This document shows, one piece after another, positions 10,882 through 31,119 of a DNA stretch of 64,000 nucleotides; position 1 is the stretch's first letter, and every line of letters starts with the position of its first letter. This stretch comes from a phage. The stretch lies in assembly GCA_020619395.1 (NCBI GenBank), contig GCA_020619395.1_4860.1; one strand, given 5' to 3'. Position numbers and translations under genes: made by a program. The notes under the pieces were generated by a model. It was not told where the DNA came from, ran no database searches, and saw nothing but the letters and a program-made list of their open reading frames with translations.

Positions 10882-11769
10882 ATGAAAAACGATTTGCATC
10901 TTGCGTATAAAACCACATTCAACCACCCGCTGCATCTATCTTCCCCAGATTCAGTGCGTGCGCACCTTGCTGACAAAGTCAGACTGATTGCACAGATTCC
11001 TGGTGAGTGGCCAAAGGTTCGTGGTCGCTTCTTGACCGACAAGAAGAACTACACCGTAGAAAATACGTTTAAGATCCGTGATATGGTTGCAGAGGCCATC
11101 GTTATCTTTAACGGCGATGGTAACTCTCGTGGCGTGTTAGTCGACGGTAAGTATTTCTTCAGTGAAGGGATTTTGAACAACAGCGTCGATTTAGAACTGA
11201 TGTTTACACCGTTTGACGAACTTGAAGCAAAACCGATGGCGCGCCGTTGGTGGAGTCCGGACTATCTGGGCTCGTTCCCTTACTACTTTGTACTGGTACC
11301 TGCCGATACGGAAACGTATTTCGACACCGAACCGTACATCGATATCGAGGGATATAAAGAACTCGGCATCACCCGTTTAGCGGACATGATGGCGTATAGC
11401 TATAAGTTCGTGTGGGATAAAAAGCGTTCTGTCTGGTATGCGTTGACTGACGATTTTGAAATCACCAAACGTATTCGTAAGCCGTGGATGCAACACCTGG
11501 TTCAAACCCGATATGGGGATTACCCGGCGACAGAAGCGGATTTGAGTAAGCTGGTAAGCTTCCTCTTAACGAAGGTGGATTTAACGAAAGAAGAAGCAGA
11601 AGCTGTTTCTGAGATTCGTAGTCGTTCGGTAACGTTGGCCGATTTGAAACGCTTGAACGAAAGACACGCCGACCTGAACAAAATTTTAGCTGCCTATCAC
11701 GACCCGATGTTACTGGTGCCTGGCGCTAATGTAGACGAAGATCCTTTATTCGCCATTGATTATATTTAA
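10882..11769 (+). CDS. Hypothetical protein in Cys-peptide/rSAM cluster (295 aa)
   Basis: ATG with GGAG upstream. No recognisable motif; co-oriented and tightly spaced with the rSAM genes. Confidence 0.6.
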   Translation: MKNDLHLAYKTTFNHPLHLSSPDSVRAHLADKVRLIAQIPGEWPKVRGRFLTDKKNYTVENTFKIRDMVAEAIVIFNGDGNSRGVLVDGKYFFSEGILNNSVDLELMFTPFDELEAKPMARRWWSPDYLGSFPYYFVLVPADTETYFDTEPYIDIEGYKELGITRLADMMAYSYKFVWDKKRSVWYALTDDFEITKRIRKPWMQHLVQTRYGDYPATEADLSKLVSFLLTKVDLTKEEAEAVSEIRSRSVTLADLKRLNERHADLNKILAAYHDPMLLVPGANVDEDPLFAIDYI

Positions 11770-11791
11770 AAATATACTGGAGCAACCTGCA

Positions 11792-12706
11792 ATGACAGAT
11801 CAAGTAGAATCCAGGATCTCGTCTGAACTGTACGACAAACCGTCAATTCTGTCGGTTGTCGCAACTTCTAAGTGTAACTTAGACTGTAGCTTCTGTGGAG
11901 GGGCTTATTACATGGATAGAGAAGATACTTCTCGTGAGTTTCAACGCGAAGAGATTCTCTCGATTTTAGAGAAGAATCCGGATATCGGTGAGATTCATTG
12001 GACGGGCGGTGAGCCGCTGTTAGCGCAGCGTAAGATTGAAGACTTCGTGAACGAGTTGAAGGAGTCTCATCCGAACCTCCGTCATCACATGTACACCAAC
12101 GGTTTAAAGATGCGTAAATCACATCTGCCGTTGCTGAAACAGTTCGACCTTATCTTTGTGTCCATTGACGGCTACAAGAAGTCGGAACGTCCGTTTATGA
12201 ACTTTGTAAACGGTGGTAATCACGAAGCGCTGGAAGTGCTGTACGAGCTGGACAACTATTACACCTGGGGTGTGATGACGCGTGACCAGTTAGGTGATAA
12301 ACGCTGGTACGAAGATTTCATCGAGCTGCACCGAGCAATCTATCATTACCGTCCAGGTGGTGTGTCGTTGTTGTTTGATGCGATGATGCCGAAACCGTTA
12401 TCGCCAGACCACGTCATGAACTTCATGTACGGGTATTGGAAAATACTCGACAATATCGAACGCCTTAACATGCAGAACGATTCTGAATGTGGGCTCGCGA
12501 TCAGTAAAATGTTCGATACCGAGTGCAACACGTGCAGTGAAGTGCTGTGGCTTAACGCCGACGGTACGCAGGAGCAAATTCAGAACGCCCCAGAGATATT
12601 GGAAGTCGGCTGTAATCGCCTGGCGCGTTCTATCGGCGTTGATGCGTATAACTACATCAACCGTGTAATTTCTGCTAAGCGTAAACGGGCGGCGAACAAT
12701 GAGTAA
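11792..12706 (+). CDS. Radical SAM enzyme (304 aa)
   Basis: CNLDCSFCGG CxxxCxxC motif near N-terminus; additional C-terminal Cys cluster (ECNTCSE..VGC). Start moved to ATG 11792 (tracked 11756). Confidence 0.75.
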   Translation: MTDQVESRISSELYDKPSILSVVATSKCNLDCSFCGGAYYMDREDTSREFQREEILSILEKNPDIGEIHWTGGEPLLAQRKIEDFVNELKESHPNLRHHMYTNGLKMRKSHLPLLKQFDLIFVSIDGYKKSERPFMNFVNGGNHEALEVLYELDNYYTWGVMTRDQLGDKRWYEDFIELHRAIYHYRPGGVSLLFDAMMPKPLSPDHVMNFMYGYWKILDNIERLNMQNDSECGLAISKMFDTECNTCSEVLWLNADGTQEQIQNAPEILEVGCNRLARSIGVDAYNYINRVISAKRKRAANNE

Positions 12707-14027
12707 TAGCGAACAGCAAATCCAGTACACACCACGCACGTATCAGGTTGTGACTAACCTGTCATGTAACCTGGACTGCGAATACTGCTACGAGCGTAAA
12801 TATCCGCGTAACAACAAAGTAGCAGACGTGATTGATTTTATCCACGCTTGTTTCGAGCGCGATAAAGATATCCCGAACGTTGAAGTCATCATCGATATCA
12901 TCGGTGGTGAGCCGTTCATGCAGCCTAAACTTCTTTTGGCGGCCTTTGAAACCGCAGAGAAGTTATGCGCAGAACACAATCGCCCGTATATGTTCAGTAT
13001 CTCCACGAACGGTACGCTTCTGGACCGTCCGCTGAACAAAGAAATTATCGAGCGCTGGAAAGACAAACTGTCTATTGGGGTCTCCATCGATGGTTTACCT
13101 GAAGTCCATGACAAATATCGTATCTTTACCACGACGCGTGAAGGGTCGTACGAAGCTGCGGTACGCGGTTACAATTATCTGAAGAGTGTTGGCATCGCTG
13201 AACTGGGCGTAAAAGCGACGTTTACGATCGATACATTGCCGCACTATGCCGCCAGCATGAAATCGTTAATTGACATGTCCGGCGGTGGTACCATTTCTGG
13301 TAATGTAACGTACGAAGATATCCTGCCGCGCCATATGGCGTTGGATATCGCGAACCAGATGATGGACGTGATGGACTACTGGATTGAGAAGGGTCTGCAC
13401 ACCAACCCGCGTAACACGATTACACACATCATCCCGGATGGCCTGAACTTTATGGCAACTTGGGACCCGGATTGGCGTGACAAACTCTTACACGACGACT
13501 CTGTTCGTCTCGACCCAGAACGCCTGAAACCGTACTGCGGTACGTTGACGCACATGACCTGTCTCGGCTTTGATCGCAAGATTTACGGTTGTAACCGTTT
13601 CATGTCCACGGTAACTTCCCGCTCTGCTGTAGCGGAACTGGTCGGTCGTGAGTTTGTGAGTCTGGACGGTGGTAAGCTGTTAGAAGAGATTCAAACGCAG
13701 TACACCAACTACCCAGAAACCTGTTTAGGGTGTCCGATGAAACACAGCTGCGGTAGCTGCGCAGCGGCATCGTACGAAAACGGTGAAGGTACACTGGAAG
13801 ACCGTAAAGCGTATCACGCCGAGCGTCGTCAGTGTGGTTGGACTACTGCGAAGCTGATGGCGGCGGAATATTGGTATCAGAAAACTGGTACGACTCGCGC
13901 ATCAGATTTGCACGATAAATCCATGTGCTATTGTTCACGTTGTGTACGCCAACGTGCCGAAGCAGAAAAATTACAAAACGGAGCCCAGAATGAAGTCAAT
14001 ACTGATTCACAATTTTACGAAGCGTAA
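12699..14027 (+). CDS. Radical SAM enzyme with SPASM/twitch-like C-terminal Cys-rich domain (442 aa)
   Basis: CNLDCEYCYERK CxxxCxxC motif; C-terminal CLGCPMKHSCGSCAAAS..CGW..CYCSRC cluster typical of auxiliary Fe-S domains. Confidence 0.75.
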   Translation: MSNSEQQIQYTPRTYQVVTNLSCNLDCEYCYERKYPRNNKVADVIDFIHACFERDKDIPNVEVIIDIIGGEPFMQPKLLLAAFETAEKLCAEHNRPYMFSISTNGTLLDRPLNKEIIERWKDKLSIGVSIDGLPEVHDKYRIFTTTREGSYEAAVRGYNYLKSVGIAELGVKATFTIDTLPHYAASMKSLIDMSGGGTISGNVTYEDILPRHMALDIANQMMDVMDYWIEKGLHTNPRNTITHIIPDGLNFMATWDPDWRDKLLHDDSVRLDPERLKPYCGTLTHMTCLGFDRKIYGCNRFMSTVTSRSAVAELVGREFVSLDGGKLLEEIQTQYTNYPETCLGCPMKHSCGSCAAASYENGEGTLEDRKAYHAERRQCGWTTAKLMAAEYWYQKTGTTRASDLHDKSMCYCSRCVRQRAEAEKLQNGAQNEVNTDSQFYEA

Positions 14028-15284: not shown

Positions 15285-15812
15285 TTAAACGAATCCGTCC
15301 AGTTCACCGTTGGTGGTGCTCAGGTCAGTTTTAACGATTGGCTGCGTTACAGTATAAACTGCAAGGCTGGCAGGCTGGTATTTAATGTGGCCTTCTTTCA
15401 CCATAACAGTGATGATTTTCTCACCACTGTCGCCGTCCTCGCGTGAAATGGTGAGTTCAGACAATGCAAACGCATCTTCCGTTTTACCGGCGGCAATTAG
15501 ATCTGCGTTGACAAAAGCAAGCACTTCTTCATCGGTATCCCATTCTGCCTGGTCAGCGGTAACTGCTTTCGCACCGATGATGTTCAATGAATCGAGGCGG
15601 GTATAATGCAGCTCTTTCTCGCCAGTAAAGTTAGCGGATTCCGCGGTGGCAGTGATGGTGAGTTTGGAGTTGCGAGTGTCTCCAGAATCTGCTGGTGAAT
15701 AGTCAGCAACAGCGCCGAATGTAACGTCAGCAGAAGTTAACGGACTAGACAGTCCGCTGTTTGCAGCATTAAACAGCGCAACGAGTTGGTCTTTTGCAGA
15801 GATGACTGCCAT
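15285..15812 (-). CDS. Short member of fibre-module family (175 aa)
   Basis: N-terminal module (LVALFNAAN..RNSKLTITA..ELHYTRLDSL) plus C-terminal TNGELDGFV shared with C-type paralogs. Confidence 0.65.
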   Translation of the reverse strand: MAVISAKDQLVALFNAANSGLSSPLTSADVTFGAVADYSPADSGDTRNSKLTITATAESANFTGEKELHYTRLDSLNIIGAKAVTADQAEWDTDEEVLAFVNADLIAAGKTEDAFALSELTISREDGDSGEKIITVMVKEGHIKYQPASLAVYTVTQPIVKTDLSTTNGELDGFV

Positions 15813-16552: not shown

Positions 16553-17068
16553 TTAGATTTTAACTAGCTTGCTCCAATCGATGGGTTGTTGCTTAACCAC
16601 TTTAACGGTACCACGTGTCGGTGACCAGAAGGTGATATCAGGCTGGTTGCGTACGTCAACATGCAACCAGGTAATATCGCACTCGATAAAGTGAATAAAC
16701 GGAAACTCGTTAGGGTTCGCGGCAATATAGTCGTGTACTTTCTGCAACGGAGTATCAAGCATTGTTGCATCAAACGCATTACCGAATTTATGCATACTGC
16801 CTGATTCGGCGTACAGTTTGTTTGCACGAGTTTGCCAATCTCCACCCTTTGGTTTCTCTTGATTAATAAAGAACTGCAGGGTACGCAGACTACGCTGTTG
16901 CTGGGAACTGGTTAAAATCACCATCCGCCCAAAACGATTACGAATCTGTTGGAGCGAGATTAGCAGTAACGGATTAAGGAAACGAATAGCACCTTCACCG
17001 TATTTCGCGATGTACTCCTGCGGCATCAACTCTTTTAACGCGAAGTTGGCAGGATTCGGATGAAACAT
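16553..17068 (-). CDS. Peptidase M15-like (candidate L-Ala-D-Glu / D-Ala-D-Ala peptidase, endolysin-type)
   Basis: SMHKFGNAFD (H-x6-D) and WLHVDV (second His) resemble zinc-ligand motifs of M15/VanY peptidases. AAGGAG RBS. Confidence 0.5.
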   Translation of the reverse strand: MFHPNPANFALKELMPQEYIAKYGEGAIRFLNPLLLISLQQIRNRFGRMVILTSSQQQRSLRTLQFFINQEKPKGGDWQTRANKLYAESGSMHKFGNAFDATMLDTPLQKVHDYIAANPNEFPFIHFIECDITWLHVDVRNQPDITFWSPTRGTVKVVKQQPIDWSKLVKI

Positions 17069-18007: not shown

Positions 18008-18625
18008 TCATTTGCACATCCCCAACTTAGCCACGTAGTCTGGCATTTCCTGATAGACGCGGCCATACCAGCCGTAAGTAAACTCTTCGTTATCCTCACG
18101 CCCTTCACTGATTTCCGTGTAGTACGCAACCTGATGACAGGTTAAAGCGAACATCAGTCGATTCAGGCCCTCTTCCCCACGGGCTTTGATGAAGCCTTCT
18201 AACGCTGTTAACGTACGTGGCCCGATACCACCATCGGCATCGATATCATCGTATAGTTTACCCTGACGGTTTAATACGTTCAGAATACGTTGCAGGGACT
18301 TGATACAGTTACCGCGTCCTGCGTTGATGCCGAAATCAAACATTCGGTCAGCTAGCAGGACATTCATTTTCATAATCTGGTCTAAACGCATCCGCTGCCA
18401 CCAGAGCTTGTTGTAAATGTCTAACGCGATTTCTAAGCTCAGGTCACGCATATCCCCTTTATAGCCATATTCGCGCGCAGTGAGTTCGGTGACACCACGG
18501 TTCGTTGCTTTGCCCAAATCTTTCGGGTTATTAACGTAACCGGCTTCGATGTTTACTTTGGCACGAATAATGCCCTCTTTACTCCAACGATCGACCACGA
18601 TAACCTCCTGAGTTGATAGGGTCAT
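18008..18625 (-). CDS. GH108-like muramidase with peptidoglycan-binding domain (endolysin or virion lysozyme)
   Basis: EAGYVNNPKDLGKATNRGVT matches the GH108 EGGYVNDPxDxGGxTxxGIT signature; C-terminal DGGIGPRTLTAL region PG-binding-like. Start uncertain: ATG 18625, or GTG 18598 with AGGAGG 5 nt upstream. Confidence 0.6.
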   Translation of the reverse strand: MTLSTQEVIVVDRWSKEGIIRAKVNIEAGYVNNPKDLGKATNRGVTELTAREYGYKGDMRDLSLEIALDIYNKLWWQRMRLDQIMKMNVLLADRMFDFGINAGRGNCIKSLQRILNVLNRQGKLYDDIDADGGIGPRTLTALEGFIKARGEEGLNRLMFALTCHQVAYYTEISEGREDNEEFTYGWYGRVYQEMPDYVAKLGMCK

Positions 18626-18657
18626 AAAAAGAAAGCCTCTTCCCCGTGGGGAAGAGG
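18623..18657 (-). terminator. Hairpin with U-tract after 725-aa gene (leaky terminator or attenuator)
   Basis: CCTCTTCC..GGAAGAGG stem then CTTTCTTTTTAT on minus strand; overlaps the possible lysozyme start. Confidence 0.4.
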
Positions 18658-18703
18658 GCATGGGTTATCTTCAGGCTTTAAACCCGTCAAGTTCCTCGTT
18701 AAA

Positions 18704-20881
18704 TTACGATAACGGTATCGTTGGCCGCACCCACGGTTTAGGGGCAGATTTGGTATACGGATTACATTCCATCATTTTACCGAGATACGCATCGTAATAC
18801 ACGAAGCGATCGACATAGAACCTCTCCACCGGTGTACTACTGGTAGCCGATTTCACCCGGTTGCGTTCCACAGCGAGGCCAATCACCCCGGTAGGCGCGG
18901 GTTTTAGGGTGAACATTACCGCACGGTTGTAACGCCAAGTGTCGTGCACAATATCAAACTCCGATACACTGTGTGCCATGATACCAAACAATGTGGTGGC
19001 TGGTAAGTTGGCTACAGCATCGCCGTATGGTGTTCCCACCAAACCGCCGGGTATGTTTTGCTTTTTGAACAGCGTACCTGAAATAATCGTACCTAAGAAC
19101 TCCACAACTACAGGTTTGGTTGGGTCGGTGACTTTATCTATCCCATCCGCACTGGCCAATCGGTTGGCATCTAAATCTGCGAGGTAGTCGAGGAACTCTT
19201 GGTACTCGTCGGTGACATTCGGTTTCACCGTTCCGACGGATACCCAGTTGACGATACTTTTATTCCCACCGACGGCTTCGCCTGCCATCCCAGGGCGAGT
19301 CCATGACATCCCGTCTTCACGACCGTAGACATAGACCGGCGAGCCGGTAGCCGGGGTGTTCCATTGCTCGAACGCTGTATATCGTCCCGGCTGGCCCCAA
19401 TCGCCACCAGGACCGCCATAGTAGCGACTCTGGTAGCCGGTAAATTGTGCGACGACTAACTGGGTAGCACCGCCTTTGTCACGGGACCCAGCTAAGCCGT
19501 TACGGTTATTGGTGCCGCTGGGTACCGCCGCGCCTGGCCCGAGAGGCGCACCACCAGCTCCACCGATCTTGGTGGTGCTAAACGCATAGTAGTCGCCCCC
19601 ACCCCCACCTCCGGCGATGGTGCCGTAGTTTTCGATGGTGACTTTGCCGCGGAAGGCATCGGTAATGTGGATTGCGTCAGCTCCGTCTGCTGATGTGTTC
19701 GCAGGCAGAGAATAGACCATACCCGAACCACCACGACCAAGAATGGTTCCCCGGTTAACGAAGTTCCAAACCACCTCGCCAATTTGCGGCAATTCGTCGA
19801 TAACGAACGTCGGTTTCAGGTTGCTGTCGCGATAAACGAAAGCCCCCGCATCTACGGTCACGTTAACAAACAAACGCCCGCACGCCGCATGGTTGGTCAA
19901 CGTCGTGGCCCAGTAGCTGTCCGAAACTTGCGACGTAGTTGTGTAGTTCAGGTTAAGGGTTTGCTCGTTATCTTGATAGCGTGCCACATTCAACGTGGCA
20001 CTGCCCATGACTTTGTACGAACCCTCCACAGGTGCCAATTGCACTTGTCTTGGCCACTCGCCTGCCAGGTCCTCTACGGGAGCAATTTCGTTTACATCAA
20101 AAACACTCCGAATGCCGAGTGTCTCGATGGCCAGAGCATCATGCAGGCTACCGGTGAAATCATCCGGGACGTATGTGGTTTTGCCTGCATATGTCTCGAG
20201 TTTGTTACGTGAAAAGAACACATACTTCGTTCCAAACATCCCGCTCCCCGGTCTAGCGGTCAAAGCCACGACGCTGTTATACGCAGAGGTTTGGCCTATA
20301 TCCTCCGGGGACATCGGGGCGCTGACATCGACTTTATCAAGATCCACGATCCGTTTGGTTGCATTAGAGTAGAAGTTAATCCACTGCTGTTTATTCGCAG
20401 CCTTTAGCGTGAGAATGATGTTGGTAACAGTGTAGACGGTGTTGATATCCACGTCACCGTTTATCACATCTAGCGTTTGGCTGCCGTACCAGACAAGACT
20501 TGTCTGTTTCGCCTGGAACGTGATGCGCGCAGCATTGTTTGTCCAAGTGATAGGCAGGTCTTCAAAGTCGTCGGTTAAAAAGGTAATCCCCAGTAAAGTG
20601 TCTAAATGCGGCAACAGTTCGTGAATGGATGCACAAGTGGGAATGGCATCCAACTTAACCTTAGCGAAATAATCAGCAATATTTTGCTTCGTGACTTGGG
20701 CCGTAATTTGACCGTAATTTGAATACCCCGGACCCCCTGTCAGTGTGACGTCTAGGGTTTTTTCGTCACGATGCGCCACGGACACCAGGCGTACGTTAGC
20801 GGGGTCTACTGCTTTGGCGACCGCGTTTTTACGGTTGAGCGACCGAATCACGGTCGCCACTAAATCGGGAGTGTAGGACAT
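18704..20881 (-). CDS. Fibre-module family protein with Gly-rich region (725 aa), candidate receptor-binding protein
   Basis: N-terminal family module (RKNAVAKAVDPANV..YGQITAQV); AGGGGGGDYY..GGAGGAPLGPG Gly-rich block; C-terminal NPYTKSAPKPWVRP shared with 20896-22215. Confidence 0.65.
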   Translation of the reverse strand: MSYTPDLVATVIRSLNRKNAVAKAVDPANVRLVSVAHRDEKTLDVTLTGGPGYSNYGQITAQVTKQNIADYFAKVKLDAIPTCASIHELLPHLDTLLGITFLTDDFEDLPITWTNNAARITFQAKQTSLVWYGSQTLDVINGDVDINTVYTVTNIILTLKAANKQQWINFYSNATKRIVDLDKVDVSAPMSPEDIGQTSAYNSVVALTARPGSGMFGTKYVFFSRNKLETYAGKTTYVPDDFTGSLHDALAIETLGIRSVFDVNEIAPVEDLAGEWPRQVQLAPVEGSYKVMGSATLNVARYQDNEQTLNLNYTTTSQVSDSYWATTLTNHAACGRLFVNVTVDAGAFVYRDSNLKPTFVIDELPQIGEVVWNFVNRGTILGRGGSGMVYSLPANTSADGADAIHITDAFRGKVTIENYGTIAGGGGGGDYYAFSTTKIGGAGGAPLGPGAAVPSGTNNRNGLAGSRDKGGATQLVVAQFTGYQSRYYGGPGGDWGQPGRYTAFEQWNTPATGSPVYVYGREDGMSWTRPGMAGEAVGGNKSIVNWVSVGTVKPNVTDEYQEFLDYLADLDANRLASADGIDKVTDPTKPVVVEFLGTIISGTLFKKQNIPGGLVGTPYGDAVANLPATTLFGIMAHSVSEFDIVHDTWRYNRAVMFTLKPAPTGVIGLAVERNRVKSATSSTPVERFYVDRFVYYDAYLGKMMECNPYTKSAPKPWVRPTIPLS

Positions 20882-20895
20882 GGTGACACCTTAGT

Positions 20896-22215
20896 CTATA
20901 GCGGTGGATACCAAGGGACCGGGGCGGTTTTGCTATATGGACTGTAGACCATATAGCCGCCTTTGCTTGGGTCGTAATAGATGAAATAGTTACAGTAATT
21001 CGAGTAAATGCTCGTCATTTGTTTGGATTGGTATCCGTTACGGTATAGTCCCTGGTAAGTAATAGCTGATGTCGTGGTGGTGTAAGCAGTGTGGTACAGT
21101 ACCCGACGCCGGTTAGCAATACTTTCTTGGAACATTTCTTCGGTCGGAAACGCGTGTTGCATCAGCCGTCGAATACTCCCGGTACAGTATCGAGTGCCAT
21201 ACGGGGAACCCGTTAAATCATCCGCAGTTTCAGGCGATTCTGCCCGAGTCAACACGTACTCGTTTTGATACAACGTGACGCTCATCGAATTTGGGCTGGT
21301 TTCCCGGAAACTCATGTAACGCGCATAACGTTCGACGTCCTCTTCCTGCGCCAAATAGGCCACGTTATTTTTCGGACCAAAGTGCAAGAAGAACGGACGG
21401 CGGAGATTACCCATATCCTCAGGTGGCGTCAACTTCACGCAGTAATTGTACTCCCCACGCATATCAGGGTCTAAGCCTGGGTTGTTATTGCGTGTAGCGA
21501 CATACCCATAGAGGTCATACGGGTTATCAGTAGCAGCATTACCGATAGTGAACGGGATGCCCGACCATGCCGACAGCGCCGCGATGAACTGGGTCATGTA
21601 CGAGTTACTGTTTAGTCGCAGCGGGGTACCCATCGGGATATTGATTATCTGTTGGGTGTACATGCTCCAGTCGAGTCGATAGACCGTGCTGTAAACATCC
21701 ATGGGTTCCCAAGCTCCGGTTTCGGTGGTGTGGTACAAGTCGGCAAAGCTGGGCTCTTCACGAATAAAGCTAATAGGAATGTGACCCGTGAATGCGGGGT
21801 TATCCGATTTAATCGCCACCGTCCGATCGCCCGTTGCCACAGTGATCATTGCAAACTGGCTGTCAGGATACGTTAAATCGTCAGCAGTAAGCACCAGCCC
21901 ACAAGCTGCGGAAATCCGGTCGATGATGTCGCGGTAGGACGTCGCCCGATAAGGTACTTTAACCGGTACGCTGACGCCTTTAAAATACTGCGAAAGGTTT
22001 AAGCGGTCGTAGTAGATGTCCATCTTACCGCTGTAACCGCCACCCTGTAATCCGTTTACCACTATACGGCTGTTGCGGCCATCGCGCAAGGCATTGGTTA
22101 AAGGACCTTGTAATAACGCCACGTTGGTTGCGTTGAGTGGTTTCTTGAGCTGCGGGTTATCACGATTAATCTGATCCCAAACCAGCTGCATGACAGGTTT
22201 GTTATAGTTGATCAT
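20896..22215 (-). CDS. Fibre-module family protein (439 aa)
   Basis: N-terminus MINYNKPVMQLVWDQINRDNPQL..RNSRIVVNG..IYYDRLNLSQYF; C-terminal SPYSKTAPVPWYPPL. Confidence 0.65.
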   Translation of the reverse strand: MINYNKPVMQLVWDQINRDNPQLKKPLNATNVALLQGPLTNALRDGRNSRIVVNGLQGGGYSGKMDIYYDRLNLSQYFKGVSVPVKVPYRATSYRDIIDRISAACGLVLTADDLTYPDSQFAMITVATGDRTVAIKSDNPAFTGHIPISFIREEPSFADLYHTTETGAWEPMDVYSTVYRLDWSMYTQQIINIPMGTPLRLNSNSYMTQFIAALSAWSGIPFTIGNAATDNPYDLYGYVATRNNNPGLDPDMRGEYNYCVKLTPPEDMGNLRRPFFLHFGPKNNVAYLAQEEDVERYARYMSFRETSPNSMSVTLYQNEYVLTRAESPETADDLTGSPYGTRYCTGSIRRLMQHAFPTEEMFQESIANRRRVLYHTAYTTTTSAITYQGLYRNGYQSKQMTSIYSNYCNYFIYYDPSKGGYMVYSPYSKTAPVPWYPPL

Positions 22216-22225
22216 TGCAACGTCC

Positions 22226-22262
22226 TAAAAAAAGAAAATAGGCCCTTCAGGGCCTATTTTTA
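22226..22262. terminator. Bidirectional terminator
   Basis: TAGGCCC-TTCA-GGGCCTA hairpin flanked by A-run and TTTTT. Confidence 0.6.
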
Positions 22263-22289
22263 GCTGTTATGGTGAAGTACGCTATCCCT

Positions 22290-22382
22290 TTAACTCCAGC
22301 TGATTCGACCTGCGTGTTGGGGATTATCCCGCTGAATGAGCCGACACAACAGCTCAAGTGCAGTGGATGAGTAAAACCCCAT
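22290..22382 (-). pseudogene. 30-codon remnant of a C-type fibre-module gene
   Basis: Translates to MGFYSSTALELLCRLIQRDNPQHAGRISWS*, matching the N-termini of the C genes (MGLYSAPELELLCQQVVRDNPELAGRIS..). AGGAG RBS retained; stop after codon 30. Confidence 0.6.
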
Positions 22383-22393
22383 ATTAGCTCCTG

Positions 22394-23296
22394 TTAGCTA
22401 AGAACCAGTTCGATAACGTGGACTACCGACGCGCTATTGGTCGAAGAGGTGTACGATGGTGTGTCTGGTGAGTTGCTGCGATAGTACCAGGGGGTGGCGT
22501 TGTCATAACCGTTGGCAAACAATGTTGCGCTTGAATCGGTTGGACTACCGCCGGAGCGCGCCGGTAAGTCGCCAAAACGTCTTACGACGCCCGCGTAGCG
22601 GAACAAGCTTGCGAACGTGTTGTGCCACTCGCCATCTTGAAAATAACCACCGCTGCTTAGGTAGGTGCTGTGCCCATAACTGTAGTCTCCGAGTCGAGGC
22701 AAACGTACCACATACTCGTAACCGTCTTTATTAAATGTCCGACGCTGGTTAGTGGTAGCGACGCCCCGTGGCGGGAAACCGTAGTCATCTGTTCCCCAGG
22801 CCAGACCTTGCTGGTATTGTTCGTTCCACGTCGTCCCTAAACGGGTCACCGTGTCAGGAATGAACAGAATGCGTCCTTTGAAAACGAATTTATGGAACAA
22901 TGTTGGAGCTTGGTTCCAGGCATTAAAGCCAATTAAACCATTCAGCTCGGCATGGTTAAGAATAAATTCTTCGTTTGTCAGTGTGCCAAAGTAGCCACGA
23001 TGCCAATCGCCACGAATAAGTTCCTGTGGGCCGGGCCCTGTCATTGGAAAGTCGCCCTGTACAATCGGCAGCCCCATAACCTTTTCAGTGCCCTTTACCG
23101 CCACGATGCGATATTGATACGTTTTATACGCCTCGGTGGTCGTGTCCTCGTACGTCGTTGTGTTACCTGGTAGTGTTACAATAGGTTCCCCCGGTGCTAC
23201 TGGGTTAACACTTTGTCTGGGGTTGTCGTAACGATAGATTTCAATGGAATCTAAAGTCTGACCTGGCTGTTGTTTCCAGTTTAAGATAATCGACAT
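22394..23296 (-). CDS. Fibre-module paralog type A, triad 3 (300 aa)
   Basis: FN3-like N-terminus (TTYEDTTTEAYKTYQYRIVAV) and central GPGPQELIRGDWHRGYFG..ELF..HKFVFKGRILF domain. Confidence 0.7.
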   Translation of the reverse strand: MSIILNWKQQPGQTLDSIEIYRYDNPRQSVNPVAPGEPIVTLPGNTTTYEDTTTEAYKTYQYRIVAVKGTEKVMGLPIVQGDFPMTGPGPQELIRGDWHRGYFGTLTNEEFILNHAELNGLIGFNAWNQAPTLFHKFVFKGRILFIPDTVTRLGTTWNEQYQQGLAWGTDDYGFPPRGVATTNQRRTFNKDGYEYVVRLPRLGDYSYGHSTYLSSGGYFQDGEWHNTFASLFRYAGVVRRFGDLPARSGGSPTDSSATLFANGYDNATPWYYRSNSPDTPSYTSSTNSASVVHVIELVLS

Positions 23297-23299
23297 GTT

Positions 23300-24298
23300 T
23301 TACTCCACTAACTCGATAACGAATGCGTACAAACCGACCTTCTCAGCACTGTCAATTAACGTAACTTGGGAGAGGTTACGTTTCGACGTATTGGTTATGC
23401 TTGAATCGATAGGCGCAGACCCGCGAACCAGAACTAATCCCGATTCAGGATCACGTTCTTGGCACAAGAAACCTTTGCCTTGGTAAGCGCTACCGCTCCC
23501 ATAAATGGACGCTGGACTAATATTAGTCCAGTTAGGGAGCATTTGTTTGTTAGGGATACAATCTCCGAACGGATAAACAAAATCGTTATATTCGCAGCGA
23601 CCATATTCCAAGTCATCATGGTCTGCGTTTCGCAACGATTCATCCAATGTCATTACTGTCGGTTCGTCCCCGTCGGTTAAACCGCGCAGCAATCGCATCC
23701 GATAGGTGTCGCCTTGCCATTCAAACAACCCACTCTGGTCAACACCTGCCAAATCCCCACGTCCGTTATCAGGACCAAATCCATCAACACCGTACACAAG
23801 CCCCGCGTTATAAATGTCATTCCACGAGTAAAGTGTAGAGTTAAATCGTCCGCCGCTGTTCATCATGTAGTAAACTTTACCATGTCGATAAAACTTGTTC
23901 ATGATTAGCGTGCCCGTGCCCGATATCCCTGTTAATGCACGAAAGCCTGCAGGCAACGCGTCATAGGTCATCTGTTCTTCGAACGGCAACTGCCCCAGAA
24001 ACGCCAAGTCGTCAGTATCGGAATAGTTAATCTGGTCGACGCCACCCACACCACGACGGTTTTTAATGACAATGGATTTTTGTGGACTACCTACGGTACG
24101 GCCGTTAACAGTTACTGTTAAAAGATACCAGTAACGGGTGTTAAGAATAACGGTTTCGTCCGTCCATTCCGTTTCGCCATTACTTAAAGTTGCAATAGGG
24201 GCTGGTAATGCGGCTGTATTTATTTTAGCCGTGCCCCGATAAATGTTAACAATTGAACCTGCCGGATTTTCATTTTTCCAGCGTAGTGTGAATGCCAT
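23300..24298 (-). CDS. Fibre-module paralog type B, triad 3 (332 aa)
   Basis: MAFTLRWKNENPAGSIVNIYRG.. N-terminus; AAGGAG RBS; 3-nt gap to A gene. Confidence 0.7.
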   Translation of the reverse strand: MAFTLRWKNENPAGSIVNIYRGTAKINTAALPAPIATLSNGETEWTDETVILNTRYWYLLTVTVNGRTVGSPQKSIVIKNRRGVGGVDQINYSDTDDLAFLGQLPFEEQMTYDALPAGFRALTGISGTGTLIMNKFYRHGKVYYMMNSGGRFNSTLYSWNDIYNAGLVYGVDGFGPDNGRGDLAGVDQSGLFEWQGDTYRMRLLRGLTDGDEPTVMTLDESLRNADHDDLEYGRCEYNDFVYPFGDCIPNKQMLPNWTNISPASIYGSGSAYQGKGFLCQERDPESGLVLVRGSAPIDSSITNTSKRNLSQVTLIDSAEKVGLYAFVIELVE

Positions 24299-24308
24299 CT
24301 GTTACTCC

Positions 24309-25751
24309 TTAGAAGCCGTTCAACTCACCGTTCGCGGTTGCTAAATCTGTTTTAAGTGGAGGTTCTGCCTGAGTAGGCGGTAGTGGACGCGGTGCGTCGA
24401 CGTGTGGTTCAAGTACAACCATCGGCCTAACTGTACCTACGCTGTTCGACACTGTCGATAACGGCAGCGCAGTATCGACGTTTGGTTCACCCACCACAAT
24501 CGGGCTGATAGGTTCTTCCACCTGTTCCGCAGTTGTTGCTAGAGGTCTCGGCGCATCTGTTGTCGCAACCTCGACTGCAAGAGGGCGAATGCTATCAGGT
24601 TGTGGTGATGGTACATTAGGAATAACCCTAACGCGCCACACAACATCCCCTTCCACATCAGCTAAAGATAAGACGATGTCGTCCTTATTGATTTCCTCTA
24701 AAACAGGCCACCAGTAAGTGGTATCTGTAAGGGTTACCCATTCAACTGAGCCACCGCGCATATTGCAACGTTGTACTTTAACAGGGTTACCCCCGGTTAA
24801 CAGTTGTTGCGTGAAGAAGACGGTGGTTCTGGTTAACGTGGTGTCATTTGCCCAGTCGCCGCCCGTAGAACCGTCACCGAGTTGTGAAATAAGCCACAAC
24901 GGTGTGGCCTTTGATAAATCAGGGCTAACCGGAACGGAGACGCGGTAATAATGCGTCTTGTTATTCTCAGTTTTCGTGACAATCAAAGCCTGGTCAACAG
25001 GTTCGATACCGTCTGGATACGGACCAGTGTCACCTGTACCGAAAATGGCACCCGCTTGATAAAGGGCCGTCCAGGTTGCTGTTAACGTTCCGGTAGTCGG
25101 TAGATAAACAATCTTACCATCCTTGAAAAATTTCAACCATTCGAAAGTCATTTTCGTTGGGGCAACATCAGGACGAATTAGGTTGTTTAGTTCAGCAAAG
25201 GTAAATAACTCTTGCTGAGAAACGTGGCCGAAGTATCCGTTTGTGCTGTCCCCTGCCAACAAATATTTATTGCCTGGCCCAGAATCTGGATAGTAGCCCA
25301 CGGCTTCATTCAAATAATCGACCGGGATATAGCCGCGATAGCATACGCTATTATACGCGGTTAAATTAATACGTGTTGGCGTTGCCAGCGATTTGATAGG
25401 CGCGTCTACCGACTGTACACTGCTATCAGATAACCAAACACCGTATAAATCGCGTAGAGCTGGGAGAAGATCCCGCACGGTCTTGGCCGTTTGTGGTACG
25501 TAGACGCGCGGAGCTATTTTAAATAGATCTGATAATGTTAAACGGTCGTAATAAACCGTGCACTCCCCAGAGAAACCTTTACCGGGTTTACCTACCAACG
25601 TAATTACCGTGTTACGACCATTCTTAGTGGTCTCGGCAGGAATACCCCTCACCCCAATCGAATCAGCGCTGATTCTTCCTGCGAGTTCAGGGTTATCCCT
25701 TACGACTTGTTGGCAGAGCAATTCCAGTTCGGGTGCGCTATACAATCCCAT
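24309..25751 (-). CDS. Fibre-module paralog type C, triad 3 (480 aa)
   Basis: N-terminal family module (VRDNPELAG..GRNTVITLVGKPGKGF..VYYDRLTLSDLF), central GPG..GYFG..ELF domain, DAPRPL repeats, C-terminal TANGELNGF. Confidence 0.7.
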   Translation of the reverse strand: MGLYSAPELELLCQQVVRDNPELAGRISADSIGVRGIPAETTKNGRNTVITLVGKPGKGFSGECTVYYDRLTLSDLFKIAPRVYVPQTAKTVRDLLPALRDLYGVWLSDSSVQSVDAPIKSLATPTRINLTAYNSVCYRGYIPVDYLNEAVGYYPDSGPGNKYLLAGDSTNGYFGHVSQQELFTFAELNNLIRPDVAPTKMTFEWLKFFKDGKIVYLPTTGTLTATWTALYQAGAIFGTGDTGPYPDGIEPVDQALIVTKTENNKTHYYRVSVPVSPDLSKATPLWLISQLGDGSTGGDWANDTTLTRTTVFFTQQLLTGGNPVKVQRCNMRGGSVEWVTLTDTTYWWPVLEEINKDDIVLSLADVEGDVVWRVRVIPNVPSPQPDSIRPLAVEVATTDAPRPLATTAEQVEEPISPIVVGEPNVDTALPLSTVSNSVGTVRPMVVLEPHVDAPRPLPPTQAEPPLKTDLATANGELNGF

Positions 25752-25762
25752 GAAGTCTCCTG

Positions 25763-26662
25763 TTAAGGCAGAACGAGTTCAAGTACCGCAATGGAGCGTA
25801 TTGTAGTGGTACCGTAGTTACTCCATGCCGGCGACTCAGGGTAAGGTGGACGGTTGTACCACTGACTGGACGTGTTATTCATAGCCGCAAAGAATGCAGA
25901 TTGTTGGGCAGTAACCGAATCGATTGAACCGACCGGAAGGTCGTCAAAGCGCGGAAACTGCCCACTGTAGTTGTACAGGCGCGCGAAGGTGTTAAACCAC
26001 TCACCGTCGAGATACAACTCAGTGTTACCGCTTCCAACGTAAGACGTCCAGTATTTGTAGTCGAACAAATACGGCAAGCGCACCACGTATTCGTAACCGT
26101 TCTTCGCCACCGTGCGGCGTTGGTTACGTGCAGTAGCCCAGCCCGGTACATATCCATTGCCATCCTGGCCGTACATCATCCCCTGGTTATAAATGAACTG
26201 CGGGCTAGCGTTTATTATCGAGTTATCGGACATAAACAGAATACGGTTTTTGTAAATGAATTTATGCCAGGCACCAACGGCGGAACTGAACATATTCACC
26301 ACGAGGCCGTTCAGTTCCGTGTTAGTGAATAACTCTGCTGGCGTTACTGTTCCAAAGTATCCAGCGTGCCAGTCGCCGTATAACAGTTTCTGGGGGCCAG
26401 GCCCGGTGTCTAAAAAGAACCCTTGGGCGGTAGGGGTGTTGAAGACACGCTCACCGTCTTTAACCGCAGCTATCCAATAACGGTAAGTGGTGTTGTTTTC
26501 CACAGCGTTGTCTTCGTACGATGTAGCGTCACCCGGAAGGGTTGCCAGAGGCGTTCCCGGTGCATTAACATCAATTGTGGCGTTGCCCGGCGTCTTGCGA
26601 TAGATTTCGATGTTATCGAGCGCCTGTGGCTTCCGTTGTGCAAAGTGTAATGTAATAGGCAT
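25763..26662 (-). CDS. Fibre-module paralog type A, triad 2 (299 aa)
   Basis: Start set to ATG 26662 (MPITLHF..), 2 nt after upstream stop; tracked 26698 start overlaps. About 60% identity to the other A copies in the central domain. Confidence 0.7.
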   Translation of the reverse strand: MPITLHFAQRKPQALDNIEIYRKTPGNATIDVNAPGTPLATLPGDATSYEDNAVENNTTYRYWIAAVKDGERVFNTPTAQGFFLDTGPGPQKLLYGDWHAGYFGTVTPAELFTNTELNGLVVNMFSSAVGAWHKFIYKNRILFMSDNSIINASPQFIYNQGMMYGQDGNGYVPGWATARNQRRTVAKNGYEYVVRLPYLFDYKYWTSYVGSGNTELYLDGEWFNTFARLYNYSGQFPRFDDLPVGSIDSVTAQQSAFFAAMNNTSSQWYNRPPYPESPAWSNYGTTTIRSIAVLELVLP

Positions 26663-26664
26663 GA

Positions 26665-27654
26665 TTAATCCTCGATAAGCTCGATTACTGGAATCCAAAT
26701 ACCGCCCACGGTCGCACCAGGGACATGTTGTATACGCTGGAGGTTATCCACGGTATCAGTGGAATCCGCCGCCGCCAATCCGCGCGTCAGCCCCAACTTA
26801 CGTTCTGGGTCAAACTCCTGACAATGCGCCCCACGGCCTGCCACCAGCGATCCATTTCCGAATATGCTGGAGTTCGACCACTTTATCAGGGACATCACTT
26901 TTTTCTTTTCTGGGAACCAGCTACTTATCCCATAGATGAGTCGGTTGTATTCGCTATCGGCAGTATACGGTGACGCGTCATGGAGTTTACCGTCCCACTG
27001 TGCATCGAGTGTCATGACCGGGCTTTCACTGTCGAGTGTTAAACCGCGCAGCAGGCGCATCCGATAGCGGTCACCCAACCACGTAAACTCCCCAGCCTGG
27101 TCAACGTCAGGTAAATCGCCATGACCGCCTTCCGGACCAGGTCCCGCCACACCGTACAGCAAACCCGCGTTATAAATCGCATCACGGCTATACAGCGTGT
27201 TGCCGTTCACACGAAGACCACTAAACAGATACAGAATTTTACCGTCTAGCTGGAACTTCATCAAGCCCGGCTTAACAGTTGGGTCGTATCCAGAAAGGGC
27301 CACAAACCCTGGCGGATAATCACCCGCGCTAGGTAATTCACCGTACGCCACGTACCCGTAATACGCAAAGCGGTCATCACCGTACTGTGGAGCCACGATG
27401 CCGATACCGCGACGGTTCTGAATTAGAATTGATTTCTGCGGACTGAACAGTGTCCGACTTCCCACTGTCACGGTGGTCATGTAGTAATACGTTGTCCCCA
27501 GTATCGCTGTTCGGTCAGTATACTCAGTTTCCCCGTTAGTGAACGTTGCCAGGGGTTCAGGTAATGCCGTACGCACCAGAGGTTTGGTGTCGCGGTACAG
27601 CTTCACGGTCGAAGCCCCAGGGTTATTGTTCGTCCAACGAATTGTAAAAGCCAT
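26665..27654 (-). CDS. Fibre-module paralog type B, triad 2 (329 aa)
   Basis: MAFTIRWTNNNPGASTVKLYRD.. homologous to the other B copies. Confidence 0.7.
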   Translation of the reverse strand: MAFTIRWTNNNPGASTVKLYRDTKPLVRTALPEPLATFTNGETEYTDRTAILGTTYYYMTTVTVGSRTLFSPQKSILIQNRRGIGIVAPQYGDDRFAYYGYVAYGELPSAGDYPPGFVALSGYDPTVKPGLMKFQLDGKILYLFSGLRVNGNTLYSRDAIYNAGLLYGVAGPGPEGGHGDLPDVDQAGEFTWLGDRYRMRLLRGLTLDSESPVMTLDAQWDGKLHDASPYTADSEYNRLIYGISSWFPEKKKVMSLIKWSNSSIFGNGSLVAGRGAHCQEFDPERKLGLTRGLAAADSTDTVDNLQRIQHVPGATVGGIWIPVIELIED

Positions 27655-27666
27655 TGTCGTTACCTC

Positions 27667-29163
27667 TTATTGGAATCCATCCAACTCACCGTTAGTATCG
27701 CCCAGAGTAATTTTTGAAGGTTGGGCGATTTGGTCAGTCGTGAGAATAATCGGTCTAATCTTAACGCTAGCCATGCCTGTTACCGCGACGGAATATGCAC
27801 GTTCATCATTGTCCGTCGTGGCAAGCAGAGGACGTGGTGAGTCTGATGACGCTTCCCGCAGCCAGGCAGGGGTGGCAGTTTCGGTGTTGTCGGTGTTGAA
27901 AACTAACGGACGTGGATTCGCTGCGGCGGAGGTTTCCGTAATAGGCACCACACGAAGCGATTCATTTTGGTCGATGTCCGTCAGAGTAACCACGGACGGT
28001 GCCCATGTTAGCTCTGCACCTTCGTCAATCAACGGCACAGGTTCATTGGCAACATCAAACATCTCCAGGATTGGCCAAAAGCCAGAAGAGGTGTAGATGT
28101 AGGTGTTTGAACGATAGCTCGCGCTGATAGACTGGTAATACGCTTGGTCGGCACCGAACTGGTGTCGTAACCACACGTAATCCAGGAAGTTAGCATCAGT
28201 CGTGCTAAGAGTTCCCCACTCCCCATATACGTTCACCGACCCCAATTTGCTGGTCAGTGACAGGATAGAGGTGATTGACGGCGGTTTACTCCAATCAGGC
28301 GCGGCGGCGTTCTCGGTGTAATACGGGATAGACATTCTGAAATAATGCGTTCCTTCATCATCCCGTTTTACCATGTATTTCAACTGTTCAACATCGACAG
28401 GTGTGTAAGTCGACTTCGGGCGAGGTCCTGCGTCTCCGGAATCAAATATTGCACCCTTGTTGTACAGGTCTGCCCAGGTAACGTTGCAAATCGCACGGGT
28501 CGGAACAAACACTACCGCCCCATTCAGAAAGAATTTGAGCCACTTGATAGCGTAGCGGTTAGGCCAGTTGGTGCCGTTATAAAGGGCATACACCATTTCA
28601 TCAGATGTGAATAACTCTTCCGCGCTTACCAGCCCAAAGAATCCGTATAACTCATTACCAGCCATTAATCCTTTTGGCCCAGGACCCGACTTCGGATACA
28701 TCGCAATCGGTTCGTAAACATAGGTCATCTTGCATGACCCGGTATAGCACAAGGAGTTAGCGTGCGCCGTCAGAGTTACAGTTTCCGGCGTAGCGTATTT
28801 CATTAATGCAACGTTTGGACTGGTGATATCACTCGCGGTTAAGTTCAACCCGTTCAATTCATTGAACGCCGGTAACGCTTCCGCATGGGTTTGTGCGCTA
28901 CGTGGAATACTCACCATATTCGGGCCAGACTTAAATAGACTGGCCAGATTCAACCGGTCGTAATATACCGTTATTTCCCCAGCAAATCCTTTACCGGGTT
29001 TTCCTACCAACGTAATCTGAGTGTTTCGTCCGTTAACGTTTTTCGCAACAGGAACACCCCTGACCCCAATGGAGTCAGGGGTGATTTTTCCTGCTAAACC
29101 GGGATTGTCACGCACAATTTGTTGGCAGAGCAGTTCCATTGAAGGTTCTGTATACAACCCCAT
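27667..29163 (-). CDS. Fibre-module paralog type C, triad 2 (498 aa)
   Basis: N-terminus about 75% identical to the triad-3 C copy; NPRPL/SPRPL repeats; C-terminal TNGELDGFQ. Confidence 0.7.
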   Translation of the reverse strand: MGLYTEPSMELLCQQIVRDNPGLAGKITPDSIGVRGVPVAKNVNGRNTQITLVGKPGKGFAGEITVYYDRLNLASLFKSGPNMVSIPRSAQTHAEALPAFNELNGLNLTASDITSPNVALMKYATPETVTLTAHANSLCYTGSCKMTYVYEPIAMYPKSGPGPKGLMAGNELYGFFGLVSAEELFTSDEMVYALYNGTNWPNRYAIKWLKFFLNGAVVFVPTRAICNVTWADLYNKGAIFDSGDAGPRPKSTYTPVDVEQLKYMVKRDDEGTHYFRMSIPYYTENAAAPDWSKPPSITSILSLTSKLGSVNVYGEWGTLSTTDANFLDYVWLRHQFGADQAYYQSISASYRSNTYIYTSSGFWPILEMFDVANEPVPLIDEGAELTWAPSVVTLTDIDQNESLRVVPITETSAAANPRPLVFNTDNTETATPAWLREASSDSPRPLLATTDNDERAYSVAVTGMASVKIRPIILTTDQIAQPSKITLGDTNGELDGFQ

Positions 29164-29176
29164 GGTATTTACTCCA

Positions 29177-30100: not shown

Positions 30101-30109
30101 GACTGCCCC

Positions 30110-31108: not shown

Positions 31109-31119
31109 AGATGATACCT

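Follow-up and report, generated by a model that had tools for sequence, protein, structure and literature searches.

A Gp38-like module and a shared LCCL-like domain in two neighbouring DUF7941 virion proteins of a Seoulvirus jumbo phage

Which proteins of a nucleus-forming jumbo phage meet the host surface is the question raised by genes 154 and 155 in contig GCA_020619395.1_4860.1, a phage DNA of 64,000 nucleotides (the window, here always the whole stretch). The 3.5-kb region that they occupy is 97.6–99.6% identical to Seoulvirus genomes, and the window is itself a Seoulvirus, an SPN3US-like nucleus-forming jumbo phage with relatives from Salmonella, E. coli and Proteus. Gene names follow the published SPN3US numbering, to which the SPN3US annotation was tied through gene 168, 5.2 kb in length, and through proteins of 78.3, 50 and 18.5 kDa.

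18704–20881, minus strand: gp155 homologue, 725 aa, ATG start (SPN3US ACQ60_gp111)
20896–22215, minus strand: gp154 homologue, 439 aa, ATG start, 98–99% identity to SPN3US ACQ60_gp112

The two proteins end with ...MECNPYTKSAPKPWVRPTIPLS (gp155) and ...YMVYSPYSKTAPVPWYPPL (gp154). Both open reading frames, and the glycine-rich stretches that a preliminary description had quoted from the 725-aa protein, are present exactly as quoted. The explanation that we favour, with a confidence slightly better than even, is that gp154 and gp155 are encoded together as a bicistronic adhesin cassette, one that belongs to the DUF7941 family of virion filaments in chimalliviruses. In this cassette gp155 is a low-copy virion protein in which two DUF7941 N-domains in tandem precede a complete Gp38 polyglycine adhesin module of T-even type and an LCCL-like domain, and gp154 is a full DUF7941 subunit with a second, faster-evolving LCCL-like domain.

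Domain architecture of gp155 and gp154

The order of domains in gp155 is two tandem DUF7941 N-domains, a Gp38-like module and an LCCL-like domain.

20423–20851, minus strand: gp155 DUF7941 N-domain 1, aa 11–153 (Pfam PF25613, E 5.2e-23; domain 1 of the paralog hidden Markov model)
19970–20356, minus strand: gp155 DUF7941 N-domain 2, aa 176–304 (domain 2 of the paralog model, i-E 2.2e-6)
19223–19963, minus strand: gp155 Gp38-like adhesin module, aa ~307–553, with a glycine-rich polyglycine-II part at aa 373–553
18725–19213, minus strand: gp155 phrog_6409 module, aa 557–719, comprising an N-terminal helix (YQEFLDYL) and the LCCL-like domain

The AGGGGGGDYY-type stretches had been called reminiscent of phage adhesins, a likeness that can now be read as homology to the T-even tail-fibre adhesin Gp38. 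The Pfam family PF05268 (GP38, phage tail fibre adhesin) matches gp155 at aa 373–553 with an E value of 5.7e-18 (66 bits against a cut-off of 25), the alignment spanning profile positions 61–214 of 218, and phrog_2056, a family described as 'tail fiber protein; host specificity', matches the module with an E value of 2.7e-19. When compared to PDB sequences with phmmer, gp155 matches the gp38 proteins of S16 (6f45_D) and PP01 (9v85_A), and its motifs GRGGxG, IAGGGGGG, GGxGGxPxGxG and YYGGxGGxWGQPG align with theirs in the same order; they also align with the Gp38-family proteins P0034 and P0035, of 261–269 aa. A Foldseek search with the full-length gp155 model recovered the S16 and PP01 gp38 structures (PDB 6F45 and 9V85) at E values of 8.8e-7 to 3.4e-5 and a probability of 1.0; by fold, which had been proposed as a check, the prediction matches both solved adhesins. 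In one SPFM genome the gp155 homologue is already auto-annotated as a Gp38-type adhesin. A profile search with the Gp38-like region gave only six proteins, glycine-rich words having probably saturated the candidate list. Because of the Pfam, PDB-sequence and Foldseek matches, a receptor-binding role for gp155 is well grounded in homology, and the glycine block is a genuine Gp38 homologue in an unusual setting.

That setting differs from the one in which Gp38 is otherwise found. Elsewhere, in T2-like, S16 and PP01 phages, Gp38 is a stand-alone long-tail-fibre adhesin of about 250 aa that is encoded after the gp37 fibre gene and caps trimeric gp37, whereas here it is an internal module of a 725-aa chimallivirus protein, with DUF7941 N-domains and an LCCL-like domain as flanks. 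No gp37 partner is encoded nearby, the neighbouring genes being DUF7941 paralogs and an endolysin, and no hypervariable loops are evident among Seoulvirus isolates. To our knowledge, every Gp38 (PF05268) domain characterised so far is extracellular and binds a receptor from the tip of a fibre. Both proteins had been suggested as a possible distal receptor-binding tip; in the 439-aa one, no glycine-rich adhesin module is found.

For the DUF7941 parts, a hidden Markov model was built from the seven full-length paralogs of 265–303 aa in the window. It matches gp155 twice, at aa 11–153 and 176–304, and in the predicted structure the order of helices and strands repeats across both N-domains (predicted local distance difference test score, pLDDT, about 88–93). 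The linker between them, INGDVDINTVY, contains four invariant residues (G142, D143, D145 and Y150). The gp155 model also matches a 150-residue chain of the phiKZ outer peripheral baseplate (9xqd_0, Foldseek E 2e-5; the N-domain that aligned was not reported), which, going by the description in the Goslar preprint, is the N-domain of phiKZ gp127. The linker and C-terminal globular domain of a DUF7941 protein are missing from gp155, the other modules standing in their place, while gp154 is a complete DUF7941 protein to which an LCCL-like domain has been appended.

21766–22215, minus strand: gp154 DUF7941 N-terminal domain, aa 1–150 (PF25613, E 1.5e-26 over aa 1–169; paralog model, E 1.4e-27)
21355–21765, minus strand: gp154 DUF7941 linker and C-domain equivalent, aa 151–287 (phrog_1037 match)
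20908–21282, minus strand: gp154 LCCL-like domain, aa 312–436 (phrog_6409, E 1.7e-18)

The phrog_1037 profile aligns with gp154 aa 1–287 over its positions 3–289 of 290 (E 1.7e-66); searches of PDB sequences with the gp154 sequence and profile gave nothing useful. Since both proteins carry the DUF7941 N-domain of the neighbouring array, they are indeed larger members of that paralog family, as had been proposed, although the SPN3US papers leave gp155 out of paralog family B. With the DUF7941 family at large (Goslar gp22/gp23, phiKZ gp126/gp127, SPN3US paralog family B) they share the N-domain, by sequence and fold, and the association with virions; NGELDGF-type donor motifs occur in their siblings, and elaborate members of low copy number again stand beside very abundant short ones. 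Two features set gp155 apart: the combination of two tandem N-domains with Gp38-like and LCCL-like payloads, which the Goslar preprint does not describe, and the lack of a donor tail in Seoulvirus.

The shared C-terminal domain

The PYxKxAPxPW end common to both proteins, on which the preliminary description had remarked, is the final stretch of the LCCL-like domain, with P708 invariant and P714 conserved at 89% among 66 family members. The likeness is real, lies far beyond chance and is longer than the quoted residues; it is not a short adhesin signature. The family phrog_6409 (171 positions, function not assigned) matches gp155 at aa 557–719 (E 2.3e-7), and BLASTP aligns gp155 aa 614–720 with gp154 aa 334–438 (E 6e-8). 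Identity between the gp154-type and gp155-type domains is only about 25%; the pattern G(T/S)P(Y/W)G … (Q/A)H..P … RN(G)Y.S, which continues with … F(I/V)YYD … NP … P..W, recurs in orthologues of either protein even where identity has fallen to about 30%. A profile of the C-terminal region finds gp154 and gp155 and no further copy in the window. The idea that the shared C-terminus is the C-domain of DUF7941 was dropped, as the model of the seven full-length paralogs does not match it.

We searched 1.84 billion cluster representatives with a profile of the domain and obtained 443 proteins at E ≤ 1e-3. A combined full-length alignment of gp154 and gp155 had smeared gp154 over the Gp38 region, and a fragment-based alignment was used instead. 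Most of the 443 are stand-alone proteins of 155–180 aa with the pattern MLE.L…Y..FL.YL…MWGTPYG…QHAFP…RNGYTS…FIYYD…NP…P..W/F, and some are C-terminal domains of larger proteins, other DUF7941+GP38 fusions included. The isolates that carry the stand-alone form are Erwinia phages (RAY gp282/gp283 and relatives, PhiEaH1, Kaldavass), Serratia PCH45, Salmonella SPLA10 and a Burkholderia jumbo phage, to which BFVD adds Cronobacter PBES 02. These proteins of about 165 aa have the whole module in common with gp155, including the N-terminal Y..FL.YL helix; they are uncharacterised and encoded outside fibre gene clusters, while in the window the module is joined to DUF7941 virion proteins as their C-terminal part. 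Three top matches of the domain search (P0036, P0059 and P0139) were discarded as presumed repeat artefacts, with many matches only to profile positions 88–113; P0036 is an Ig_7/CHU_C repeat protein.

A model of the gp155 module (aa 557–725), built from the 66-sequence alignment, reached a pLDDT of 88.8 and a predicted template modelling score (pTM) of 0.84. Its predicted fold is that of the LCCL domain (PF03815), the nearest structures being the LCCL domain of cochlin and then Rxt3 scaffold subunits. At the sequence level, the Pfam LCCL family matches none of the 66 domain members even at E values up to 10, no Pfam family matches any of the 443 relatives, and the domain profile has no match among PDB sequences. 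When compared to cochlin with hhalign, using an approximate cochlin sequence, the domain gave a P value of 0.005 but a probability of 7%, with YG, S..A.H and NG(Y/I).S lined up in the expected order. Cysteines are not conserved, no column of the 66-member alignment exceeding 30% Cys. Because the sequence link is thin and conserved cysteines are lacking, we term the predicted domain LCCL-like and do not count it as a member of the LCCL family. The context differs as well, being a phage virion and not secreted metazoan proteins as for LCCL (cochlin, PDB 1JBI; Rxt3), and no description of an LCCL domain in a phage protein was found in the literature searched.

The two copies of the domain differ in how they vary. 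When compared to gp154, the related protein P0014 is 99% identical over aa 1–290 and only 30–41% identical in the spacer and LCCL-like domain: the domain has been exchanged, as one module, between proteins that are 99% identical elsewhere. Among eight Seoulviruses, the LCCL-like domain of gp154 has 14 nonsynonymous against 9 synonymous-only sites, and its N-domain 2 against 4; gp155, in the same eight, evolves evenly and conservatively. The C-domain of gp154 resembles a specificity determinant in its behaviour more than the Gp38-like module does. For the published clusters of positive selection in Seoulvirus, locus tags of genes 154 and 155 were not found in the supplements.

A rather doubtful alternative is that the shared C-terminal domain serves in protein–protein docking or assembly, and that only the Gp38-like module contacts the host; the domain might then pair gp154 with gp155 or fix both to a site on the virion. 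Such a role would agree with the strong conservation of the core motifs in both proteins and the 443 relatives, with the constant co-occurrence of the two genes, with the rank of Rxt3 scaffold subunits as nearest folds after cochlin, and with gp155 homologues in which a donor tail follows the domain, which is therefore not necessarily terminal. A docking interface would not, however, be expected to be swapped and to evolve fastest, as the gp154 domain does, unless its partner co-varies, and the low identity between the two domain types also speaks against it.

Putative donor tails and the place of the two proteins on the virion

For the DUF7941 family as a whole, a role in filaments that recognise the host has recently been proposed, which speaks for an adhesin role of its larger members. 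In the Goslar preprint, the linker of one subunit is proposed to dock on the N-domain of the next and so to build head-to-tail filaments; purified gp22 self-assembles into filaments, a gp126–gp127 heterodimer was fitted in the phiKZ map with the gp127 N-domain on the baseplate side, and other DUF7941 proteins are fused to carbohydrate-binding, glycoside-hydrolase or leucine-rich repeat domains. At the level of motifs, three elements of the window would fit such linking: C-terminal NGELDGF tails, the INGDVDINTVY linker of gp155 and a relic tail behind its stop codon. The motif NGEL[DN]GF occurs four times in the window, where 0.005 occurrences would be expected by chance, and each time at a C-terminus: four proteins, gp145, gp148, gp151 and gp160, finish with it to within one residue. 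It is similar to the linker in the middle of full-length paralogs, such as VVTNTELSGLLYP. Outside Seoulvirus, gp155 homologues (P0002, P0003, P0005, the CR5-like P0012 and the second copy in the metagenomic phage L011) end with …PWVRP…(N/G)GELDGF….

18671–18706, minus strand: TAA stop of gp155 followed by the in-frame relic tail F-N-E-E-L-D-G-F-K-A-stop (sequence reading)

The TAA and the tail behind it are common to all eight Seoulvirus genomes checked, and the SPN3US clade has Val for the key Phe. We read this as a probable dead relic of an NGELDGF tail. Programmed readthrough was judged unlikely: the stop is followed by T, and UAAU is a context in which enterobacteria terminate strongly; Val replaces the key Phe in the SPN3US clade; and in Lh1B a stop comes even sooner, albeit where the sequence is of low quality. 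Two records depart from the usual layout of gp155: P0005 (423 aa, on an 11-kb metagenomic contig) is without part of N-domain 2 and the whole Gp38-like module and retains the LCCL-like domain and NGELDGF tail, and P0038 (137 aa) consists of the LCCL-like domain and tail alone. Both may be real modular variants or artefacts of assembly or gene calling.

Both proteins belong to the virion. Mass spectrometry of SPN3US detected gp155 (78.3 kDa) with 28 unique peptides and 60% coverage, and gp154 (50 kDa) with 19 peptides and 68% coverage. Their spectral counts over mass (SC/M) are 0.70 for gp155 and 0.90 for gp154, when compared to the portal (12 copies), which has 0.93, and the sheath (~264 copies), which has 8.84; since the values lie near that of the portal, we infer, roughly, about a dozen copies of each per virion. 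In contrast to these elaborate proteins, two short paralogs are about as abundant as the tail sheath in SPN3US virions, which parallels the abundance of Goslar gp23 and gp22, the proposed filament building blocks.

15285–15812, minus strand: gp160, 175 aa, N-domain and NGELDGF tail
35219–36130, minus strand: gp141, 303 aa, full DUF7941 protein

Under the published head-to-tail model, each subunit would receive the donor linker of its neighbour on its N-domain, and gp154 and gp155 could thus be plugged, by their own N-domains, into filaments of abundant paralogs such as gp160, gp141 and others. As the TAA has removed the NGELDGF tail, Seoulvirus gp155 would accept a donor and be unable to donate, and would therefore end a chain. 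The loss of the donor tail, together with the low copy number, makes it reasonable to place gp155 at the filament end, where its Gp38-like and LCCL-like modules would face the cell surface; gp154 might be a further tip, or else an adaptor or partner of gp155. On this view the phage would have several alternative tips for host recognition, of which the cassette is one and a three-gene unit, repeated three times upstream, the other kind. The receptor reported for SPN3US is the flagellum (PMC11428620), which suits long flexible fibres. We put forward more tentatively, as a possibility that falls short of even, an extended form of this proposal: the shared module would be an LCCL-like specificity domain, the first of its fold on a bacterial virus, which binds the host surface and is traded in cassettes, gp154 and gp155 would be exchangeable distal tips of micron-scale DUF7941 filaments, and the 17–20 'head' paralogs would form a multi-tip host-capture apparatus.

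Several observations weigh against the adhesin cassette. The full-length gp155 model was built on a shallow alignment, and aa 431–528, the central polyglycine part, are modelled poorly (pLDDT <50). The Gp38-like part of gp155 in isolates from Salmonella, E. coli and Proteus has 8 nonsynonymous against 19 synonymous-only sites and no hypervariable hot spots. The LCCL fold has no settled ligand and does not by itself reveal a function: one study saw no binding of glycosaminoglycans by the LCCL domain of cochlin in isolation, and Rxt3 uses an LCCL-like fold inside a nuclear complex. The stand-alone phrog_6409 genes of Erwinia RAY adjoin a DNA polymerase gene and have no virion annotation, and the head-to-tail docking model rests on AlphaFold predictions in a preprint. 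Besides, gp138–155 and gp160 were found in purified tailless 64(am27) particles, which are DNA-filled and without tail tube, tape-measure and gp168–170 (baseplate candidates), and the authors assign these proteins to the head; these are the only direct localisation data for gp154 and gp155. Of the distal receptor-binding tip that had been proposed, a receptor-binding role of the 725-aa protein is supported by homology; the presence of both proteins in tailless particles speaks against a location on the tail. The head assignment conflicts with the phiKZ baseplate position and with the Goslar filament model; the Goslar preprint makes no mention of SPN3US, of Gp38 or of this conflict between head and baseplate. 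It would be reconciled by free self-assembled filaments that co-purify with heads, or by attachment to the head or neck.

The second of these solutions amounts to an explanation of its own, in which adhesive fibres are anchored on the head or neck, as capsid or collar fibres, and not on the baseplate. It would reconcile the proteomics of tailless particles with the adhesin domains, and capsid-borne fibres are known in other jumbo phages (according to a review), while Goslar has collar filaments. We nevertheless regard it as unlikely, since the only solved position of a DUF7941 domain is at phiKZ's outer peripheral baseplate, and no SPN3US head-fibre density was found in the literature searched. 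Least probable is that gp154 and gp155 are mere head components, internal, ejected or decorating the capsid, with structural or intracellular modules and no role in adsorption: their detection in DNA-filled tailless particles and the non-structural neighbourhood of the RAY stand-alone genes would fit, but the extracellular fibre-tip location of all characterised Gp38 domains known to us, the DUF7941 N-domain modelled in the solved phiKZ peripheral baseplate, and the modular swap of the gp154 C-domain, typical of host-range determinants, all argue otherwise, and filaments such as those of Goslar gp22 could, we infer, co-purify with heads.

The two-gene cassette and its neighbourhood

The adhesin cassette that we favour also has a counterpart in gene order. 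Cronobacter phage CR5, the CR5-like contig L012 and L004 likewise have genes 154 and 155 side by side and in this order, and the 237-kb metagenomic phage L011 has the pair twice. In CR5, L012 and L011, 7–9 genes of ~280 aa come first, followed by the pair of ~437 aa and ~720 aa (two pairs in L011) and then by one triple of ~490, ~330 and ~300 aa; in the window, three triples precede one gp154–gp155 pair. Each three-gene unit of the window encodes a DUF7941 protein of ~470–498 aa that ends in NGELDGF, a protein of ~330 aa and a protein of ~300–311 aa, the second and third sharing a central domain with the first (phrog_1062, phrog_3589). The unit is single in CR5, L011 and L012.

22394–32532, minus strand: three-gene unit, three times in tandem (gp145–147, gp148–150, gp151–153)
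22225–22260, minus strand: intrinsic-terminator hairpin and T-run upstream of gp154 (11-bp stem, -16.1 kcal/mol)
18626–18657, minus strand: intrinsic-terminator hairpin and T-run downstream of gp155 (9-bp stem with 6 GC pairs, -16.9 kcal/mol)
22260–22382, minus strand: relic junction in the 178-nt gp153–gp154 gap, joining a gp148/gp151-type 5' end and a gp144-type 3' end

With a predicted terminator on either side, gp154 and gp155 would form a terminator-bracketed unit. A hairpin is found at the equivalent position upstream of the gp154 homologue in CR5, L011 and L012, with different stems. The junction in the gp153–gp154 gap links 30 codons from the start of a gp151-type gene to the frameshifted last codons of a gp144-type gene: the relic translations MGFYSSTALELLCRLIQRDNPQHAGRISWS and KGIAYF..HHNS, each closed by a stop, compare with MGLYSAPELELLCQQVVRDNPELAGRIS of gp151 and with the ...KGVAYYHYNS end of gp144, and the junction sequence is identical in SPN3US. 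It looks like the scar expected from an unequal crossover that duplicated the pair and the triple. The downstream hairpin falls within a 217-aa open reading frame (18008–18661), so that the endolysin probably begins, in agreement with the SPN3US annotation, at the second ATG (MTLSTQ…).

Part of this is already known, as any Pfam scan would show the Gp38 match and a preprint has put forward DUF7941 filaments. New are the fusion of two N-domains with Gp38-like and LCCL-like modules, the LCCL-like fold proposed for phrog_6409, a two-gene cassette that is conserved, bracketed by terminators and subject to duplication, the exchange of the gp154 C-domain as a module and the truncated donor tail of gp155. 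SPN3US is the genetic model for nucleus-forming jumbo phages, and since 2016 the largest of its paralog families has been classed as 'head', no function being assigned to it. A Gp38-type domain and a shared C-terminal domain in two neighbouring virion genes suggest that this family is really host-recognition fibre material: the Gp38-type module inside the gene array, and likewise the swapped C-terminal domain, are direct evidence, at the level of sequence, for a family turned towards the host. The 'DUF7941 fibre cloud' proposed in 2026 thereby gains support from another phage and another kind of evidence, and the result bears on host finding by a flagellotropic jumbo phage and on the host range of therapeutic Seoulviruses. 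Besides, an unannotated domain family with hundreds of members (phrog_6409) now has a proposed fold.

The placement of the pair between a paralog array and cell-wall hydrolase genes, noted earlier, is borne out. The upstream array is gp138–153, the 'paralog family B' of SPN3US, and downstream of gp155 lie the endolysin gp156 (GH108 and PG_binding_3), gp157 (a DUF1353 protein annotated as tail assembly chaperone), the M15-like lysin homologue gp158, and gp160.

16553–17068, minus strand: gp158, 171 aa (endolysin phrog_894, E 2.8e-26; weak Peptidase_M15_3 match)
11756–14027, plus strand (13208–15323 in L001): two adjacent radical SAM domain proteins (SPN3US annotation)

Some deposited entries for this region are odd. 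Among the SPFM GenBank proteins P0006–P0011, P0021–P0026 and P0032–P0033, several rank high in HMMER and align over only 3–18% in BLASTP, and the Lh1B record has Ns and an additional stop inside gene 155; these records look like sequence-quality problems. In the published SPN3US data gp158 is present in virions and absent from tailless particles, and it is therefore a candidate tail-associated lysin. Finally, the radical SAM gene pair likewise lies near the same fibre-gene cluster in CR5 and L012.

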